A stretch of 64,000 nucleotides of DNA from assembly GCA_965287045.1 (NCBI GenBank), contig OZ336872.1, positions 93,744,001-93,808,000 on the forward strand, written 5' to 3'. The translations under genes were made by a program, and so were the position numbers. The DNA comes from Carcharhinus amblyrhynchos (lineage: Eukaryota). Positions 12,101 through 50,480 of the stretch are shown piece after piece. The notes beneath the pieces were generated by a model, which had not been told where the DNA came from, did no database searches, and saw only the letters and a program-made list of their open reading frames with translations. The first letter of the stretch is position 1; the number at the start of each line of letters is the position of its first letter.

Positions 12101-12374
12101 ACATCTCTTTAACCTGTCATTATCCCTCTCTCCACTCACATTGCCTGTACCTGCAAATACTTGATTACCTGTTAAGACTCACATTCCAACCGTTGTCTTG
12201 CAATTGAGTTTGTGTCTATATATGCCTTGTTTGTGAACCCAACTCTCCACTCACCTGATGAAGGAGCAGTGCTCTGAAAGCTCATGCTACAAAATAAGCA
12301 TGTTGGATTTTAACCTGCTGTTGTGAGAATTCTTACTGTGTCCACCCCAATCCAACACTGGCATCTCCACATCA
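12101..12374 (+). mobile_element. Penelope-like element terminal repeat fragment
   Basis: Contains a minimal hammerhead motif. Its 3' end TGTTGGA...CCAACACTGGCATCTCCACATCA recurs at 29989-30063. Family assignment is inferred from the ribozyme architecture. Confidence 0.65.
12252..12286 (+). ncRNA. Minimal type I hammerhead ribozyme motif, slightly decayed
   Basis: CAC-CTGATGA-A-GGAGC-AGT-GCTCT-GAAA-GCTC-ATG: intact core, 5-bp stem II, palindromic AGCT stem III, stem I CAC/ATG (GTG expected; CpG-type change). Confidence 0.65.
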
Positions 12375-16515: not shown

Positions 16516-17339
16516 GATTCTGTGGATCGCCCTGTCTCCCAGTTCGCCTCCATGGGAATATTCGATTCCGTCCCCCATATTTTTGAATTAAAATTAAAAG
16601 AAAATGTAATTATTTATTGTGTAGATGGGTCAAGACTACTCACTCATTTTGCATTATGGGTCATATTCATTCCATCCCTGTGCTAATGGTCACAAATGAA
16701 GTTCAATAATAGTGACAAATTTCTTGTGGGAATTATTGGGTGGAGCAGGTAGTACGTAAGAGGGAAGTGGGACATAATAGACCCTAGATTACATTAGAGA
16801 TTCAACTCTTATAAACCAATGCTGAAGCTGTAGCAGCTCCTCACATGACATGACCAACTCTTTGTCAAGAATTCTTTACATAGTTTAAAAGTCATCACAC
16901 TTCTCACACAGAGGAGGAATTTCAGGCAAAAGCTTTTTTTCACAACAATATGCATCCCATTCACAACTATGGTCTTGTGATAGATTAATGCCAGATTTTA
17001 GAAACTTTTGTATTTGAGGGGATGCCTACCAACTGAAAATTACTTACTTGTGGTATTCTACCAAGTATTAAATTTCATGTATTGTCATGAGAAACCCTGC
17101 CAGGTATCATGTACTGACTTATTATTCATCCTAATACATAACCAGTGTGAAAACACGGGCTCAATGCTTCAGCTTAATCTGACATTTAATCTTCTTATCT
17201 TAATCCTCCTGCTAGCTATCCATTGCATTTCCCCTCTTTTAACTCATACAAAACAAGGTAAAACACTGCAGCTGCTGCTGACCTGAAATAAAACCAGAAA
17301 ATGCTGGAAATATAGCAACACTCACCAAACCACCTGTCC

Positions 17340-23914: not shown

Positions 23915-24035
23915 ACTTGATTATAAACTGTCTTTAATTTCTCCCAGTTCTGATGAAAGGCCATCAACCTAAAATGTTAATTTTGTTTCCATCTCCATGG
24001 ATGTGAGCTGACTTGCTGAGTATTTCCAGCATTTA
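23915..24035 (+). mobile_element. Penelope-like terminal fragment with decayed hammerhead
   Basis: AGTT-CTGATGA-A-AGGCC-ATC-AACCT-AAAATGTT-AATT (23946-23982), then TGCTGAGTATTTCCAGCATTT, related to 46808-46830. Confidence 0.6.
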
Positions 24036-34038: not shown

Positions 34039-35960
34039 TGATGTCAGAACGTGAAGAAGAACTTGATTTTTGAATGCTGGAAATGATATGGAGAACACAC
34101 TGAGAGGTCAGGGACACAGAAAAGTTAGAATCTGCAGAAAAGCTGCTGAAAAAAGGACAAAAATAAAAGTTGCAAGTAAAATACTGGCTACAGAGAAGAC
34201 ATAGCTAAGGAAGAAACACAGAAAGGTTCAAACCTGCAAAAATGCTACTGAAAAGGACAAAAGAAAACAGACAAAAGCTGTAAGCAAATTCTGAATGAGT
34301 AAAAAATGGCTGCAGTAAATTTTCCCATCCCACTCCTAGTCAGTGATATGCAGCAAAACTGGTAGTTTTTCCACTTACAATTGCAAAACTTGGAGATGCA
34401 ACATATTTAATTAACAAGCCTGGACAATTCAGCATCTGCCAAGAAGAGTTCCAGCTGCCCTCAAGTTAAGCTTAAAAAACAAGGCAGAAGAGCTGGAAAA
34501 GAGTGAAGTCATCAAAAAAGCGGCAACTCCTACAGACTTGATTTGCTGCATGGTGGGAGTGAAACAACCTGGAAAACTGTGAGTATGATGACCCTAAGGA
34601 TCTAAACAAAGCGCTGAAGAAATCCACTACCCCATGCCAACCATCGAAGGAATGCTGTTGCAAATTGACAAGCCAAAGCTATTCACCACCCTAGATTTGA
34701 AAGATGGTTACTGGCAAGTAAAGCTGGATGAAAGCAGAGGCCGTCTAATGCCATTCTGGATGCTGTTTGGGAGACACAGATGTTTGCATGTGCCATTTGT
34801 CATTTCTGTGGATCTAGGAGAGTATCAACATAGACAACATGAGATAATCAGTCATCTTCCTGGAGTGAGAGCCATAGTGGATAATCTACTAATCTATAAA
34901 TGTGGAGACACAATGGAAGGAGCCAAAAACGGACCAAGATCTTCATTTAAGATATAGGCTATGAAAATTGAGAAGCTTTTGTTTTGTATGACTGCTAGAG
35001 AAAGCTTGCCAGATAAATCTGAAGCTGAACGAGAACATATTGCAACTGAAGATGCCCAACATCAAGTACATAGATAATGTATTGATGGCAAAAGGTCATC
35101 ACCCAGATCCTGATAAGGTGAGAGCTTTAGCAGCAATGCAGTGACCAACAAACGTGAAAGCAGCGAAATGATTTGTTAGGTTTGTGAACAACTTAGCTAA
35201 ACATTTGCCAAATTTGTCAGCTGGATGTGGACTATGGTGCAAGCTCATTGCCATACACTGCTGCCTCCCTGTGACTCCCGCATTCCTTGTCCTCCACCCC
35301 TTGACGGCCCAATCATTGGCCCCCACAAACATGCCCGAGCCCAGTGTTGATCCAGCCCCAGCCTGAATCACCCCCGATTCTCCCTCAGTCCCAAACTCCA
35401 ACCTCCCTGCAGCACTGACCCCCCTTCCTCAGTCCCGACGTCCCCCCAACCCGCAGTGTCGAGCCCCCCCTTCAGCCTGACCCACTAAGCAGGCTAACCC
35501 TCCCCCCCCATTCCGATGGCCATCTCCATTGCTGGCCTCCCTCCTTCTGTCACTCAGTCTGAGTGCAGATTGGCAGCAGAACTCCCTACCCCTACAGATT
35601 GCCCTTCATTGTTTAAAGACTATTGCCAGAATTTTCTGGCCAGTCCTGCTGATGGCCCACCCACCACAGATTTCCCAGTAGTGAGGGGTGCTTTCAACGG
35701 GAAACTCCATTGACAACAGCAGGACTAGAAGACCCCACCACCGGCCAATGGCAGTCTGAATCCACTGCTGCAAAGCATATGGTGGGGTCTGCGGAAAGTC
35801 CTGACCTGTGTGTGCAATGCATTTGCAGAACTTGATGAATAGAACAGTTGCTAACGCATGAAAACAGTGCATAACCTGGATAAGTCACAGTCAACTGAGT
35901 TTGATGTTTGCTAGGAAAAGAGGATGTTTGAATCTTTTGTTTAATATGAAAAGGGGAATG
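34039..35960 (+). mobile_element. Degenerate Gypsy/Ty3 internal region (RT relic), interrupted by a MITE-like insert (~35270-35800)
   Basis: HYPMPTIEGMLLQIDKPKLFTTLDLKDGYWQVKL...IVDNLLIY (ORF 34634-34957), PDPDKVRAL ~35102, PBS-like TGATGTCAGAAC at 34039, purine tract GAAAAGGGGAA then TGT at 35948-35961. Confidence 0.75.
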
Positions 35961-43924: not shown

Positions 43925-44600
43925 CAACTTTTATTTATATAATGCCTTTAACATAATACAATGTGCCAAAATGCTTCACAAGGGCATTATAAACCAAGAT
44001 GCAATATCAATCCACATAAGGAGATATCAGGGCAGGTGACTAAACACTTAGTTGATGACATAGGTTTTAAAGAGTGTCTTTAAAGAGGAAAGCAATGTCA
44101 AGACGCTTAGGGAGGAAGTTACAGAGTTTTGGGGCCTAGACAACTCGAGGTATGGTGACCAATGGTGAAGCAATTAAAACCACAGATGCACACAAGGATG
44201 GAATTTGATGAGTGCCAATATTTTGGAGGGGCTGGAGGAAATTATTGCGATAGGGAGGGATTGGAAGGATCATGGACAGGTTGGAAAACAAGGATGAGAA
44301 CTTTAAAATTAAGACCTTGCTTAATCAGGAACCAGTGCAGTTTGGTGAACACAGGGGTAATGGGAAATGGGATTTGATATCAGGCTGATGATGCTTAGAT
44401 GATCTCAAATTTATGGAGGGTAGAATACTGGGGATCAGCTAAATGTGCAATTTGAACAATTAAGTCTAGAGGTAATGTGGATAATGGCTTCAGCAAGTGA
44501 TGAGTTGAGACAGGATAAAGTTGGGGATGTTATAGAGGTGAAAATAGGCAGTCATAGTGATGGCATGAATGTGTTGAAAGCTTATCTTGGATTCATAAAC
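43925..44600 (-). mobile_element. Old L2-like LINE 3' portion
   Basis: Begins with the reversed tail CAACTTTTATTTATATAATGCCTTT...GCTTCACA; similar to 53020-53590 and to the reverse of 12820-13110. Confidence 0.6.
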
Positions 44601-45979
44601 AGCTATTTCCCTAAATAATTTTATTGTAAAATTTGGTATGTACTAAATAAGATTTTCGGTTATATATTGATGTGGAAATTCTGATTAGATCTACTGACAA
44701 AAATAAAAATTCAGTGATTTCTGAAGGGGGTCTGCTCATTTCAAATATAAAGGGGAGATTTTCCAGCTGCACTTGTCCCAAGGCCGGGAAATCCCACACA
44801 AGGTCAACACATCTTTGCGTGGATCATATCCCACCTGCTACGATATCTGTGGTTGGTTGGTGGGATGGGAAAATCCTGCTGAAAGTGTAGATTTCAAATT
44901 ACTTAGCAGATAAAATCAGTTTTTTTTGTAAAATTGAAGTGACCCAAAGTTTAGAAATTGATCTCAATGGGTTTTTATTGATTTTACTGAAAAAGGCAAC
45001 AGCCTTACTTACAGCTCATATAACCTTTAAAAATCTCATTATTTTGTTGAGTATCCTAAATTTCAGTTCTCCTTAATTCCAAGAGAACTGTGGGGATTAC
45101 AACTGATGAAATTTGAAGCATTTTATTTCATTTCCTCAACAATCGAAACATAAGCCTGATAATGATAGTCAAATTGTTTAAAAACTTTTTGCAGCAATAC
45201 TTGTATGTTTCATAAAATAAAGATTAGAGGAAAATGCTTCAGATAAAATGAAGAACATAGGAATGGAAACATAGAAATTGGAATTAGCCATTCAGCCCCT
45301 TAAACCTGTTCCATCTTTCATTAAGATCATGGCTGTTCTGCAATCTAACTCCATATAACTGTTTGAATGGTGTACAGGTCTTGCTGCATGTGGGCACAAA
45401 CTGCCTCAGTATCTGAGGAATTTTGAATGGTACTGAACACTGTGTATTCATGAGGGAACATCCCTACTTCTAAGCCTTTGTTGGAGGGAAGGTCATTGCT
45501 GAAGCAACTGATGGTGGTTGGGTCGAGAAACACTATCCTGAGGAATTCCTGGGGCTGGAGTGATTGGCCTCCAATAATCACAACCATCTTCTTTTGTGGT
45601 AGCTTTGACTCCATCCAGTCAAGAGCTAGATCAATGATTCTCATTGACTTCAGCTTTGCTGGGGTTCCTTGATGTTACACTCAGTCAAATGCACCCATGA
45701 TGTTAAGATTAGTTACTTTCATATCGAGTATGGAATTCAGGTTGTTTGTCCTTGTTTGAACCCAGCTGTGATGAAGCATGGAGGCAGGTGGTTCTGGCAG
45801 AATTGAAACTGAACATTGGTAAACAAGTTATTTCTGAGAAAATTGCATTTGATATCACTGTTGTTAAAACCATCTATCACTTAACCGATGATCATGTATA
45901 GGCTGATGGGGTGACAATTGGTCCAATTGGATTTGTTTTGTATTTTGTGGACAGGACATACTGTACATTTTTTCACACT

Positions 45980-46715
45980 TTGGGAGGTCTCATAAGGGTA
46001 GGATATACACAATGAGTGGTAGGTCCCTAGAGAGTATTGGGGAACAAAGGGATAACAAGTCCATAGATCTCTGAAGTTGACAGCACAGGTAGATAGGGTG
46101 GTGAAGAAGGCTTGCCTTCATTTGCCAGACATAGAATATAGGAGTAGGGAGGTCCTGGTGCAACTTTATAAAACATTGGTTCGGCCACAGATGAAGTATA
46201 GTATAGTTCTGGTCACTGCACTATTAGAATTGCACTGGAGCGGGTGCAGAAGAGATTCATCAGCATGTTGCCTGGGATGGAAAGCTTCAGCTATGAGGAG
46301 ACACAGGATGGGCTGGGTTTATTTTCTCTGGAGCAGAGGAGGTTGAGGAGGAGTTTGATAGAGATATACAAACCATGTGAGTCATAAATAGGGTAGATTG
46401 TAAACATCTTTTCCTTGTAGTAGTGGATCTCAGACCAGAGGCATAGGTTAAAGATATGGAGTAGTAGTTTAGACAGAATCTGAGGAATATTTTTTCACCA
46501 GAGGGTGGTGAAAATATAGAACACACTGTCTGAGAGGGCGGTGGAGGCAGGTACTCTCACAACATTTAAGAAGCATCTGGACCAGCACTTAAATTGCTGT
46601 GGCATAGTGAACCATAGTCCAGTTGCTGCTAAATGGGATTAGTGCAGATTGGTCTTTGATAGTCGGCATAGACAAGGTGGGCTGAAGGTTCTGAGCTGTA
46701 TGACTTTGTGACTAT
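45980..46715 (+). mobile_element. Older CR1 3' fragment
   Basis: QVDRVVKKA...IEYRSREVLVQLYKTLVRPQ, FFTRGW-like region, tail TATGACTTTGTGACT. Confidence 0.85.
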
Positions 46716-46738
46716 TTCAGTGTGAATTCTTGTTTCAA

Positions 46739-46777
46739 AGCTTTGACAAAGGGTCATCTGGGCTTGAAACGTCAGCT
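46739..46777 (+). ncRNA. Minimal type I hammerhead ribozyme motif with U3-A8 core variant, inside a Penelope-like terminal fragment (~46735-46872)
   Basis: AGCT-TTGACAA-A-GGGTC-ATCTG-GGCTT-GAAA-CGTC-AGCT: stem I AGCT/AGCT, stem II with G-U pairs, palindromic ACGT stem III, GUC cleavage triplet at 46771-46773. Confidence 0.6.
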
Positions 46778-47059
46778 ATTTTCTCTCCTTACAGATGCTG
46801 TTAGAACTGCTAAGTTTTTGCAGCATTTTCTCTTTTGGTTTCAGATTCCAGCATCTGCAGTAGTTTGCTTGTATTTGGATCATCCAATTGGTAATTCTGA
46901 CTGTAGATGCAAATGCTTCAGTATTGTCTTTTGCTGAACTCCTCCTCTGGTTATTGTTGAACTGTGACAGGATTGCAGACAGGAGTGATCTGATCTATTG
47001 GTGTAGGATCATTCAGCTTTGTCTATAGGAGACTGCATCTGCTGTTTGGCATGTCAGTA

Positions 47060-49463
47060 TTTGGCATGCCGACGAGGGAGCGAGCTATCTTGGATCTGGT
47101 GCTATGTAATGAGGCGGGTAGAATTAGGGACCTTGTGGTGAAGGATCCTCTTGGGGAGAGTGATCATTGTATGGTGGAGTTTCTGGTGCAGATGGAGGAG
47201 GAGAAAGTGGGTTCCCGGACACGCGTCCTTTGTTTGAATAGAGGGAAATACGGTAGGATGAGAGAAGAATTGGCGAATGTGGACTGGGAGAGCGCGTTGG
47301 AGGGAGGGTCTGTTAAGGAGCAGTGGAGGATCTTTAAGGAGATCTTTCTTGGTGCTCAACGGAAATTTATTCCGATGGTCAAAAAGGATAGTAGAAGGAG
47401 AGGTAATAAGCCGTGGATAACAAAGGAGGTGAAGGAAAGTGTTAAACTAAAAGCGGAGGAATTTAGAGTAGCTAAGAGTAGTGGGCGAGAAGAGGATTGG
47501 GAGAGGTTTAAATGTCAACAAAGATTGACAAAGAAGTTGATAAGGAAGGGTAGGAGAAACTATGAAGCTGAGCTAGTGCTTAATATAAAAAAGGATAGCA
47601 AGAGTTTTTATAAATATATAAAAAGGAAGAGGCTGGCTAGGGTGAATGTTGGTCCTTTAGAGGATGAGAAAGGGGACCTAGTGGTAGGGGATGGGGATAT
47701 GGCTAAGGTATTGAATAATTTTTTTGTTTCTGTCTTCACGGAGGAGGACGTGAATAATTTGCCGGGTGTTAGCGATAGAAAGGTGGTAGGACTGGAGGGT
47801 CTTAATGACATTACTGTTACTAGAAAGGCGGTGCTCGACAGACTGGAGGGGGCTGATTGTGGACAAGTCCCCAGGACCGGATGGAATGCATTCGAGGGTT
47901 CTGAAAGAAATGGCGGAGGTGATAGTGGATGCCTTGGTGGTTATTTTCCAAACGTCGCTGGATTCCGGGGAAGTGCCGGATGATTGGAAAACGGCTAATG
48001 TTACGCCGTTGTTTAAGAAGGGTGCCAGGCAAAAGGCGGGGAATTATAGGCCGGTTAGTTTAACATCTGTGGTAGGTAAAATGTTAGAATCTGTCATCAA
48101 GGAGGAAATTGCGAGGCATCTTGAAGGGAATTGCTTGATAGAGCAGACGCAGCACGGTTTCATTAAAGGGAAGTCGTGTCTGACAAATTTACTGGAGTTC
48201 TATGAGGATGTGTCTAGGGCAGTGGATAGAGGAGAGCCGGTGGATGTGGTCTTTCTAGATTTTCAGAAAGCGTTTGACAAAGTGCCTCACAAGAGGTTAT
48301 TGCAGAAGGTCGAGGGACATGGAGTTGGGGGTAAGGTGTTAGCGTGGATAGAAGATTGGTTGTCAAATAGGAGGCAGAGAGTGGGGGTCAACGGGTGCTA
48401 TTCGGATTGGCGGATGGTGACTAGTGGAGTGCCCCAGGGGTCGGTGCTGGGGCCTCAGCTTTTTACCATTTATATAGATGATCTGGAGGAGGGAACCGAG
48501 TGTAGAGTGTCGAAATTTGCTGATGACACCAAGATTGGGGGAACGGCAAATTGTGCGGAGGGTGTGGAGAGTCTGCAGAAGGATCTAGATAGGCTGGGCG
48601 AATGGGCCAGGAAATGGCAAATGGAATTTAATGTTGGCAAGTGTGAGGTGGTCCACTTTGGTAGGAAAAATGGTAGGAAGGACTATTACTTACGAGGCGA
48701 AAAACTGCAGCAGGCGACGGTGCAGAGGGACCTCGGGGTCCTTGTGCATGAGTCGCAAAAACCCAGCTTGCAGGTGCAGCAGGTGGTCAGGAAGGCGAAT
48801 GGGATGCTGGCCTTCATAGCGAAGGGGATTGAATATAAAAGTAGGGAGGTCTTGCTGCAGCTGTATAGGGCATTGGTGAGGCCGCAACTGGAGTACTGTG
48901 TGCATTTTTGGGCGCCGCACCTGCGCAAAGATATTTTGGCCTTGGAGGGAGTGCAGAGGAGGTTTACTAGGCTGATACCGGAGTTGAGGGGGTTGAGCTA
49001 TGAGGAGAGGCTGAATAAACTGGGCTTGTACTCGTTAGAGTTTAGAAGAATGAGAGGAGATCTCATTGAGACGTATAAGATGATGAATGGGATGGATAGG
49101 ATAGAGGTGGAAAGACTCTTCCCGCTCAAAAAAGACAATAGGACTAGGGGGCACAGCCTCAAGATAAAAGGGGGGCGGTTTAGAACAGAGTTGAGGAGGA
49201 ACTTCTTCACTCAAAGGGTGGTGAATCTCTGGAATTCTCTGCCCGTTGAAGTGGTGGAGGCTGCCTCGCTAAATATTTTTAAGACACGGGTTGATGGGTT
49301 TTTGATAGGAGAGGGGATTAAGGGTTATGGGGAGAGGGCGGGAAAGTGGAACTGAGCAGCGACAGATCAGCCATGATCTTATTGAATGGCGGGGCAGGCT
49401 CGAAGGGCTGGATGGCCTACTCCTGCTCCTATTTCTTATGTTCTTATGTTCTTATGTTCTTAT
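47060..49463 (+). mobile_element. Young 5'-truncated CR1 (HER1-like) LINE, copy 2: end of APE, linker and complete RT, one frameshift
   Basis: ORFs 47051-47983 and 47805-49355 join if one G is removed from the G5 run at 47848-47852. Motifs LGESDH, NYRPVSLTS, DFQKAFDKV, GVPQGSVLGP, KFADD; tail (TTCTTATG)x4. Confidence 0.97.
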
Positions 49464-50480
49464 TGTTGTCGCACCTGGTTTTTAAGTATGTCTTGTGCAG
49501 CTCCTGATATGCTCTTTGGCATTTCTTATTGTACCAGAGTTGGTGCCCTTTTTGATGGTATTATTAGACTGGGGAATATGCCAGACCCCCAGGTTACAGA
49601 TTGTGGTTGCATACAATACTGCTGCTTCTGATGGCCCCCAGTAACTCACAGATGGCCAGCTTGGAGAGCCCATCCATGTTAAGACACCCTCAAGGGCAAG
49701 ATTACCTTATTTATTGAACATACCATGGACAGGCATGTAGGTCCCGGCAGTCAGAGGGATGAACCCTCCAGCTGAGGTGTCAGAGGAATGGAGGTGATAA
49801 TTGTGGTTTGGGAGTCCCTCTGTGGGCCATGGATCAGTCATTATGGAAGGGAGCCCTCCCCTTTAGTATTCCAGTGGGATACCGCTATGATTCACCTGGC
49901 AGTCTCCCCATGCAGGGAGGCTTTCCTGATTTTCGTAAAGACCGATCGGGGGTGGATAAGTGGCCAGTAATTGACCAATTAATTGACATAATTGGTTGTC
50001 TACTTCCTACTAGTAGGTGGCTGCATCATGGCCGTTTCCACCATTCAGATATCCCATGGCGGCAAGAATTGTCAGGACACTCTTTGCGACATCTTGCCCT
50101 CAAGTTACAAGGCTTCATACTTCCCAGCCTGTTCCCAGAGAGCTGGTAAAATCCAGTCCTAAAAATCTCCAACCAAATCGTAGAGCTGCATTTCACGGGC
50201 TTGTGGGGGTGGGGGTGGGGGTGGGTGGGGGGAAGGCGTGGGTCGGGGGAGAAGGAGGAGGAGACTGCACACATCCCCCAAGGAGGAAAATCAGCCAGAA
50301 ACTGACACTGGCAGAACAAGCCCATCCCACAGCCTAACAAGAGGGGAGCGGACTAAGTTATTTACTAGTGTGGCTGCTGCCCGTCAATGGGAGGAAGGTC
50401 TCCCTCTCAGGAGCTGTCAGCCAATCTGATTGGTAACATTACCACAATGTTCCAATCCACTTTGAAGATTGCTGCTCACA

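Follow-up and report, generated by a model that had tools for sequence, protein, structure and literature searches.

A predicted U3-A8 hammerhead ribozyme as the inherited state of a Penelope-like subfamily in a shark genome

Positions 46735–46874 of the window, the whole 64-kb stretch of Carcharhinus amblyrhynchos DNA analysed here, very probably hold a decayed 140-base stub of a Penelope-like element (PLE). The stub carries a minimal hammerhead motif whose U3-A8 core is the inherited state of one subfamily of the element, and likely compensatory for C3-G8 in the source. The source ribozyme would cut after the GUC triplet only as a dimer or with the aid of a protein, and the window copy is likely inert.

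Anatomy of the hammerhead motif

Motif positions are numbered after the established hammerhead scheme. Every part of a minimal type I hammerhead can be read in the sequence of the 39-base segment 46739–46777, and the letters and coordinates assigned to it in the first-pass annotation were confirmed. The features of the stub, which belongs to subfamily A (see below), are as follows.

46735–46874, plus strand: the whole insertion, a probable pseudo-LTR (pLTR) stub of a subfamily A PLE (hammerhead plus ~100 bases, long 3' end with PLE tail), from the genome search
46735–46746, no strand: palindrome TCAAAG/CTTTGA, a remnant of a head-to-head inverted junction, from fold-back centres in A copies
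46739–46742, plus strand: stem I 5' arm AGCT, from the sequence; also the usual 5' boundary of stubs
46743–46749, plus strand: core U3 U4 G5 A6 C7 A8 A9 (TTGACAA; U3 is 46743 and A8 is 46748), from the sequence and the subfamily consensus
46750, plus strand: extra A between 9 and 10.1, from the sequence; a trait described in PMC4209133
46751–46765, plus strand: stem II GGGTC/GGCTT (46751–55 and 46761–65) with the 5-base loop ATCTG (46756–60)
46766–46773, plus strand: G12 A13 A14 A15.1 (GAAA, 46766–69), palindrome ACGT (46769–46772) and GUC triplet, from the sequence
46774–46777, plus strand: stem I 3' arm AGCT, from the sequence
46778–46874, plus strand: remainder of the stub, reaching the farther of two family 3' end clusters (PLE tail), from 30 copies

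The palindrome ACGT occupies the place of stem III, and C17 is 46773, with the cut predicted 3' of C46773. The core contains a Watson-Crick 3-8 pair, U4, G5, A6 and A9, G12, A13 and A14, the A15.1-U16.1 pair and an H17 base. Also present are the traits of minimal hammerheads: a palindromic 15.2-16.2 segment without a stem III, the extra base after 9, and a stem I of 4–5 pairs. A descriptor calling for a C3-G8 or U3-A8 core, a stem II of at least 4 pairs, GAAA, the palindrome and a stem I of at least 4 pairs matched the 64-kb window once, at 46739–46777, and found nothing in 200 dinucleotide shuffles. The folding energy of the 39-mer was no better than that of its own shuffles (z = 0.03); the fold resembling a hammerhead, at −6.0 kcal/mol, lies above the minimum-energy fold (−7.5 kcal/mol), and the minimum-energy structure of a two-copy cofold was other than a hammerhead dimer. 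These folding results were counted neither way because such a lack is expected for a 39-base minimal motif. An Rfam covariance-model scan of 44000–50000 gave no hammerhead match at E ≤ 5.

Core states of genomic copies and two sister subfamilies

Copies were collected from the genome of the species itself (2.92 Gb). A DNA search with a window query returned copies 87–92% identical over query positions ~16–157, covering ~46735–46875. Since the best matches lean towards the query, core states were counted with patterns in which positions 3, 7 and 8 are free and most other core letters fixed. The 1910 exact matches comprise 1123 with U3-A8 (by subtraction), 451 with C3-G8, 272 with C3-A8 and 64 with U3-G8, an association of r = 0.62. 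By nine positions outside the core, the copies fall into subfamily A, with loop ATCTG and a GUC site, and subfamily B, with loop ATCCA and a GUU site. At 107 loci, 11 of them unclassified, all 26 classified TTGACAA copies belonged to A and all 25 classified C3-G8 copies to B. Subfamily B also accounted for 22 of the 27 classified C3-A8 loci, and these 22 represent CpG decay of the B core CTGACGA.

A pattern of the A type anchored outside the core (it bars A at position 3) had 3144 exact matches in the genome. A hand tally of the first 100 gave TTGACAA in 65, U3-G8 in 3, C3-A8 in 2 and C3-G8 in none; the remaining 30 had other changes or truncations. In these same 100 matches the CpG at 11.1/12 was intact in 39 and decayed in 61 (C>T in 24, G12>A in 37). 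Had the A source carried a CpG at 7/8, it should have decayed likewise and left many TTGATGA cores, but TTGATGA was seen once. Three of the first 100 (G000:C1:836588, 1512834 and 3336410) have one common non-core 7-mer in place of TTGACAA; they are possibly a duplicated or derived sub-repeat that has lost the core.

The same state recurred in 25 A copies taken from loci chosen as long and ORF-bearing, which have U3 in 24 and A8 in all 25. In contigs of four runs from four organisms, positions 46743 and 46748 had no other letter at the 10% level under a likeness filter of 85%. U3-A8 is thus the master, or source, state of subfamily A, and C3-G8 the state of its sister B. TTGACAA is the subfamily A consensus, as the check proposed in the first-pass annotation had asked; the alternative it named, a CTGACGA consensus with the window copy as a decayed outlier, fails against the 1123 U3-A8 matches. 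An intermediate U3-G8 subfamily was also considered but found no support. Copies of the A type with U3-G8 are only 3 of the 100 listed, and most of them (7 of 8) keep the CpG, which is what recent back-changes should look like.

Subfamilies A and B are ~85% alike and differ at ~11 of 69 positions (the nine diagnostic ones plus 3 and 8). Within the 39-mer the differences are confined to 3, 8, two loop bases, H17 and a single base of stem I, a constancy of the core that is partly built in because the patterns fixed most other core positions. The stem I difference is wobble-compatible, and the base stays paired. Differences that keep the 3-8 pair and the stems fit selection on the source elements; against this, the change at G8 is a cheap one, G8 lying in a CpG in subfamily B. 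The first-pass annotation had proposed a paired change. With a C3-G8 sister in the same genome a compensatory pair is plausible, but the A/B contrast is to be counted as a single inherited event, with no repeated covariation. Single copies are under no selection for catalysis and decay neutrally, as the loss of G12 in 37 of the 100 listed A copies shows.

The window copy is a diverged stub

The 3' end of the stub was placed by local alignment and by loose contig ends at 46870/46874, two bases beyond the 46872 first proposed; the proposed start, 46735, was upheld. An inverted junction is common in the family, in which full inverted copies were seen, and the window copy retains a 6-base remnant of it. 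Compared with the majority letters of 30 copies it has 11 differences in 134 positions, a divergence of ~8% like that of other copies. Two of them, 46762 A>G and 46765 C>T, fall within stem II; they are private to this copy (against 30 of 30 pattern-selected copies) and read the same in the contigs. The T at 46765 turns the family pair G10.1-C11.1 into G10.1-U11.1, so that three of the five stem II pairs are G-U, and the hairpin is calculated at −2.3 kcal/mol compared with −5.3 kcal/mol for a majority-type copy. The loss of G10.1-C11.1 is a decay mark of the copy and not of the family, as C11.1 is kept in 22 of the 25 A copies from long ORF-bearing loci.

The native upstream pLTR is missing from the window copy, and no second copy of the motif was found within the 64-kb window. 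Contigs from two other organisms (X19 and X20) cross the insertion junctions at 46601–46761 and 46841–47000 with 2–8 differences per ~160 bases, and the insertion is therefore likely to be shared and old. A search for expression yielded 23 runs, all of them contigs, in which the RNA rows contained under 0.1 of the query words, and gave no sign that the copy is transcribed. Contigs of two putative RNA runs cover the repeat but not its flanks and are locus-unspecific. The stub lies between plus-strand LINE fragments at ~45990–46700 and 46994–49352, which are probably CR1-like; the one on the right contains two RT-like open reading frames, 329 and 521 aa long.

The source is a Penelope-like element

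Where native upstream sequence is kept, copies share up to ~2.3 kb; these long copies are ~82% alike, so the family is old. In longer A copies the motif follows a broken RT and GIY-YIG gene at a distance of ~400 bases. The broken ORF pieces alone gave GIY-YIG at E 0.03–0.06 in Pfam, below the cut-off, and no RT family; a PDB search returned no significant match. A search with the RT piece found 47 relatives (best E 6.5e-48), the closest named ones from cartilaginous fishes, and the intact relatives carry RVT_1 and GIY-YIG, with the RT followed by a C-terminal GIY-YIG upstream of the repeat. One relative aligns over residues 268–907 and ends ~400 bases before the hammerhead, and the B locus L098 has the same gene end at a similar distance. 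The assignment to EN+ PLEs thus rests on the domains of intact relatives, the broken pieces falling below the Pfam cut-off, and the domain order fits the Poseidon/Penelope clade. Together with the minimal hammerhead traits, the gene behind the longer copies bears out the earlier view of the motif as a PLE-type minimal hammerhead.

The 3' ends of 30 copies fall into two clusters ~33 bases apart, with 12 at 64–69 and 10 at 97–101 bases past the cut site and 8 elsewhere. An inverted 5' partner was found in 12 of the 30. The family therefore has the 5' truncation, inverted 5' partner and 30–40 base tail of PLEs, the tail and inverted partners being described as PLE traits (PMC8557442, PMC11167929). 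Neither a full-length ORF between two direct pLTRs nor a direct-tandem A element was found in 23 long loci reaching ~5 kb upstream, and no long constant sequence was found among the 100 matches listed that would represent a tail running on into the ORF start. A non-LTR retrozyme was ruled out, as the site has a single stub without a tandem array and long copies carry ORF pieces.

The 5' boundary of stubs and a putative transcript start

Of 30 A copies selected by their motif, most (21) start in or directly at the AGCT of stem I, 7 retain native upstream sequence and 2 retain 6–12 bases of it. Fold-back junctions are centred on AG/CT in 14 of 17 A copies (perfect arms of at least 5 bases) and 3 of 4 B copies. 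Exactly 30 bases above the stem I A lies the start of a TATAAA-like word in 30 of 33 A matches and 5 of 7 B matches, despite a spacer sequence that differs between A and B; these represent two inherited states rather than 35 events. The word was noted at this distance in L004, L008, L076, L110 and other loci.

The sharpness of the 5' boundary and its place 30 bases downstream of a TATA-like box suggest that the ribozyme sits at the transcript start, and thereby hint at where PLE transcripts begin. The simplest reading of the stubs is that they are RT run-offs from internal start sites to an RNA 5' end at stem I. The same AG could instead be a 3' splice site, for a pyrimidine tract and AG directly precede the core and the Drosophila virilis Penelope intron is reported to end at helix I (PMC4209133). 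The D. virilis Penelope promoter has been described as TATA-less (PMC2377424). None of 100 listed among 5446 tail-anchored copies begins at the cut site; these show no genomic cleavage footprint, and the integrated copies came from uncut RNA, as reported for the anole PLE. It is conceivable, if rather doubtful, that in these fish PLEs a TATA-driven transcript opens with the hammerhead as its first 39 bases. Cleavage after base 35 would then take off the capped leader instead of serving only to resolve tandem RNA. The thousands of stubs would be RT run-offs from 5' ends left uncut, and subfamilies A and B would form a natural experiment in which activity was kept through an independent swap from C3-G8 to U3-A8.

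Origin of the U3-A8 core

In the account we favour, C3-G8 would be ancestral and the swap to U3-A8 would have been retained by selection on the source element. Base-pairing of two source-element RNAs at ACGU would build stem III, and the cut would then follow GUC, in line with the dimer model (PMC4209133). The stub would have been made by the RT of the element, starting ~100 bases past the cut site on uncut RNA and reaching the RNA 5' end at stem I. The selected variant proposed in the first-pass annotation can accordingly be retained for the source element alone, as a conjecture; it does not extend to neutrally decaying single copies such as the one in the window, which has lost G10.1-C11.1.

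A more serious competitor, though still an unlikely one, holds that the A source ribozyme was dead or dispensable, so that U3 and A8 drifted in separately and pair by chance. In its favour, there was one event only, G8 is CpG-hypermutable, A and B differ at ~11 of 69 positions, and the tail-anchored copies listed never start at the cut site. Hammerhead mutants are moreover reported to have no effect on insertion of the anole PLE in vitro (PMC11167929), and Naiad PLEs are described as thriving without canonical hammerheads (PMC8557442). Against chance pairing, the remaining A/B differences in the motif leave the core untouched and the stems paired, other PLE lineages are reported to have undergone the same swap (PMC4209133), and U3/A8 ribozymes are reported to be active in vitro (PMC3088659).

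Selection on the source is also to be preferred to post-insertion decay of one copy in a CTGACGA family, an idea that the counts refute and that retains almost no credibility. Both changes are indeed transitions, subfamily B often shows C3-A8 through CpG decay (272 matches) and the window copy has other private changes; yet U3-A8 makes up 1123 of 1910 matches, C3-G8 is absent from the 100 listed A copies, and the copies from long ORF-bearing loci are nearly uniform at U3 and A8. Very improbable too is an active window copy used by the host. Its core, palindrome and stem I are intact and the insertion has persisted, its junctions being crossed by contigs of two other organisms, but stem II is weakened by the loss of G10.1-C11.1, the divergence is that of any other copy, the window lacks a second copy, and the native upstream promoter region is missing between flanks of LINE fragments.

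Comparison with known hammerheads

The swap itself is already in print (2011 and 2014), and what is new here is another family carrying it; the comparisons below draw on the cited passages of each paper. C3 and G8 pair and covary to U3/A8 in several natural examples according to Perreault et al. (2011, PMC3088659), who also cite earlier in vitro activity of U3/A8 ribozymes; their examples have the same core pair as subfamily A and come from other families. Cervera and De la Pena (2014, PMC4209133) reported U3-A8 in Schistosoma PLE minimal hammerheads, with ~1,300 matches and a search descriptor of its own. The Schistosoma mansoni Cercyon hammerheads described there resemble subfamily A in being type I with a short stem I and a U3-A8 core, and Cercyon and other PLE minimal hammerheads share with it the extra base between 9 and 10.1, G10.1-C11.1 and the palindrome at 15.2-16.2. 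Like the shark family, they are located in the pLTR and occur mostly as single truncated copies. The shark family differs in its vertebrate host and in a stem II of 5 rather than 7–8 pairs, and, unlike what these passages describe for Cercyon, it has a C3-G8 sister subfamily ~85% alike in the same genome. The first-pass annotation had expected the variant to be missed by CUGANGA searches. In a vertebrate genome, entire subfamilies of high abundance do escape such searches (A has at least 3144 exact matches), but the point was made in 2011 and 2014, and the PLE variant has its published descriptor.

The Poseidon element of Anolis carolinensis (Frangieh et al., 2024, PMC11167929) is like the shark element in encoding an RT followed by GIY-YIG and in its pLTR hammerhead. 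Two internal RT start sites are reported to give its tail, with uncut RNA as the main template, and RNA-seq ends to be absent at the cut site in the data presented there. Poseidon has a C3-G8 core, with the ORF start in stem II, whereas shark subfamily A has U3-A8 and its copies gave no located ORF start; and an active protein and protein-assisted cleavage have been shown for Poseidon, whereas the shark element is known from sequence alone. The cut of the anole PLE needed the protein of the element and was dispensable for insertion in vitro (PMC11167929). Small PLE-associated hammerhead variants with almost no stem III are reported by Lunse et al. (PMC5785218) to cleave as dimers; this model would be shared by subfamily A, which may itself be listed there. 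The A/B sister pair offers ready material for asking whether PLE hammerheads must cleave, a question raised by the anole and Naiad reports (PMC11167929, PMC8557442). A literature search on hammerhead U3-A8 and shark Penelope ribozymes found no paper on the shark family, which may be catalogued in Repbase or Dfam, and the chondrichthyan sampling described in a 2026 retrozyme preprint is one genome.

Other features in the window

A second hammerhead-like motif, at 12255–12285 on the plus strand, has a canonical CTGATGA core and belongs to another repeat family. A TATATA word lies 38 bases above its C3; its palindrome and stem I seem degraded, and the motif falls outside the strict descriptor. 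Tail fragments of related PLE-type repeats without a hammerhead lie at 17246–17310 (minus strand) and 24014–24034 (plus strand). The sequence at ~34600–35000 (plus strand) resembles an LTR-retrotransposon RT motif.
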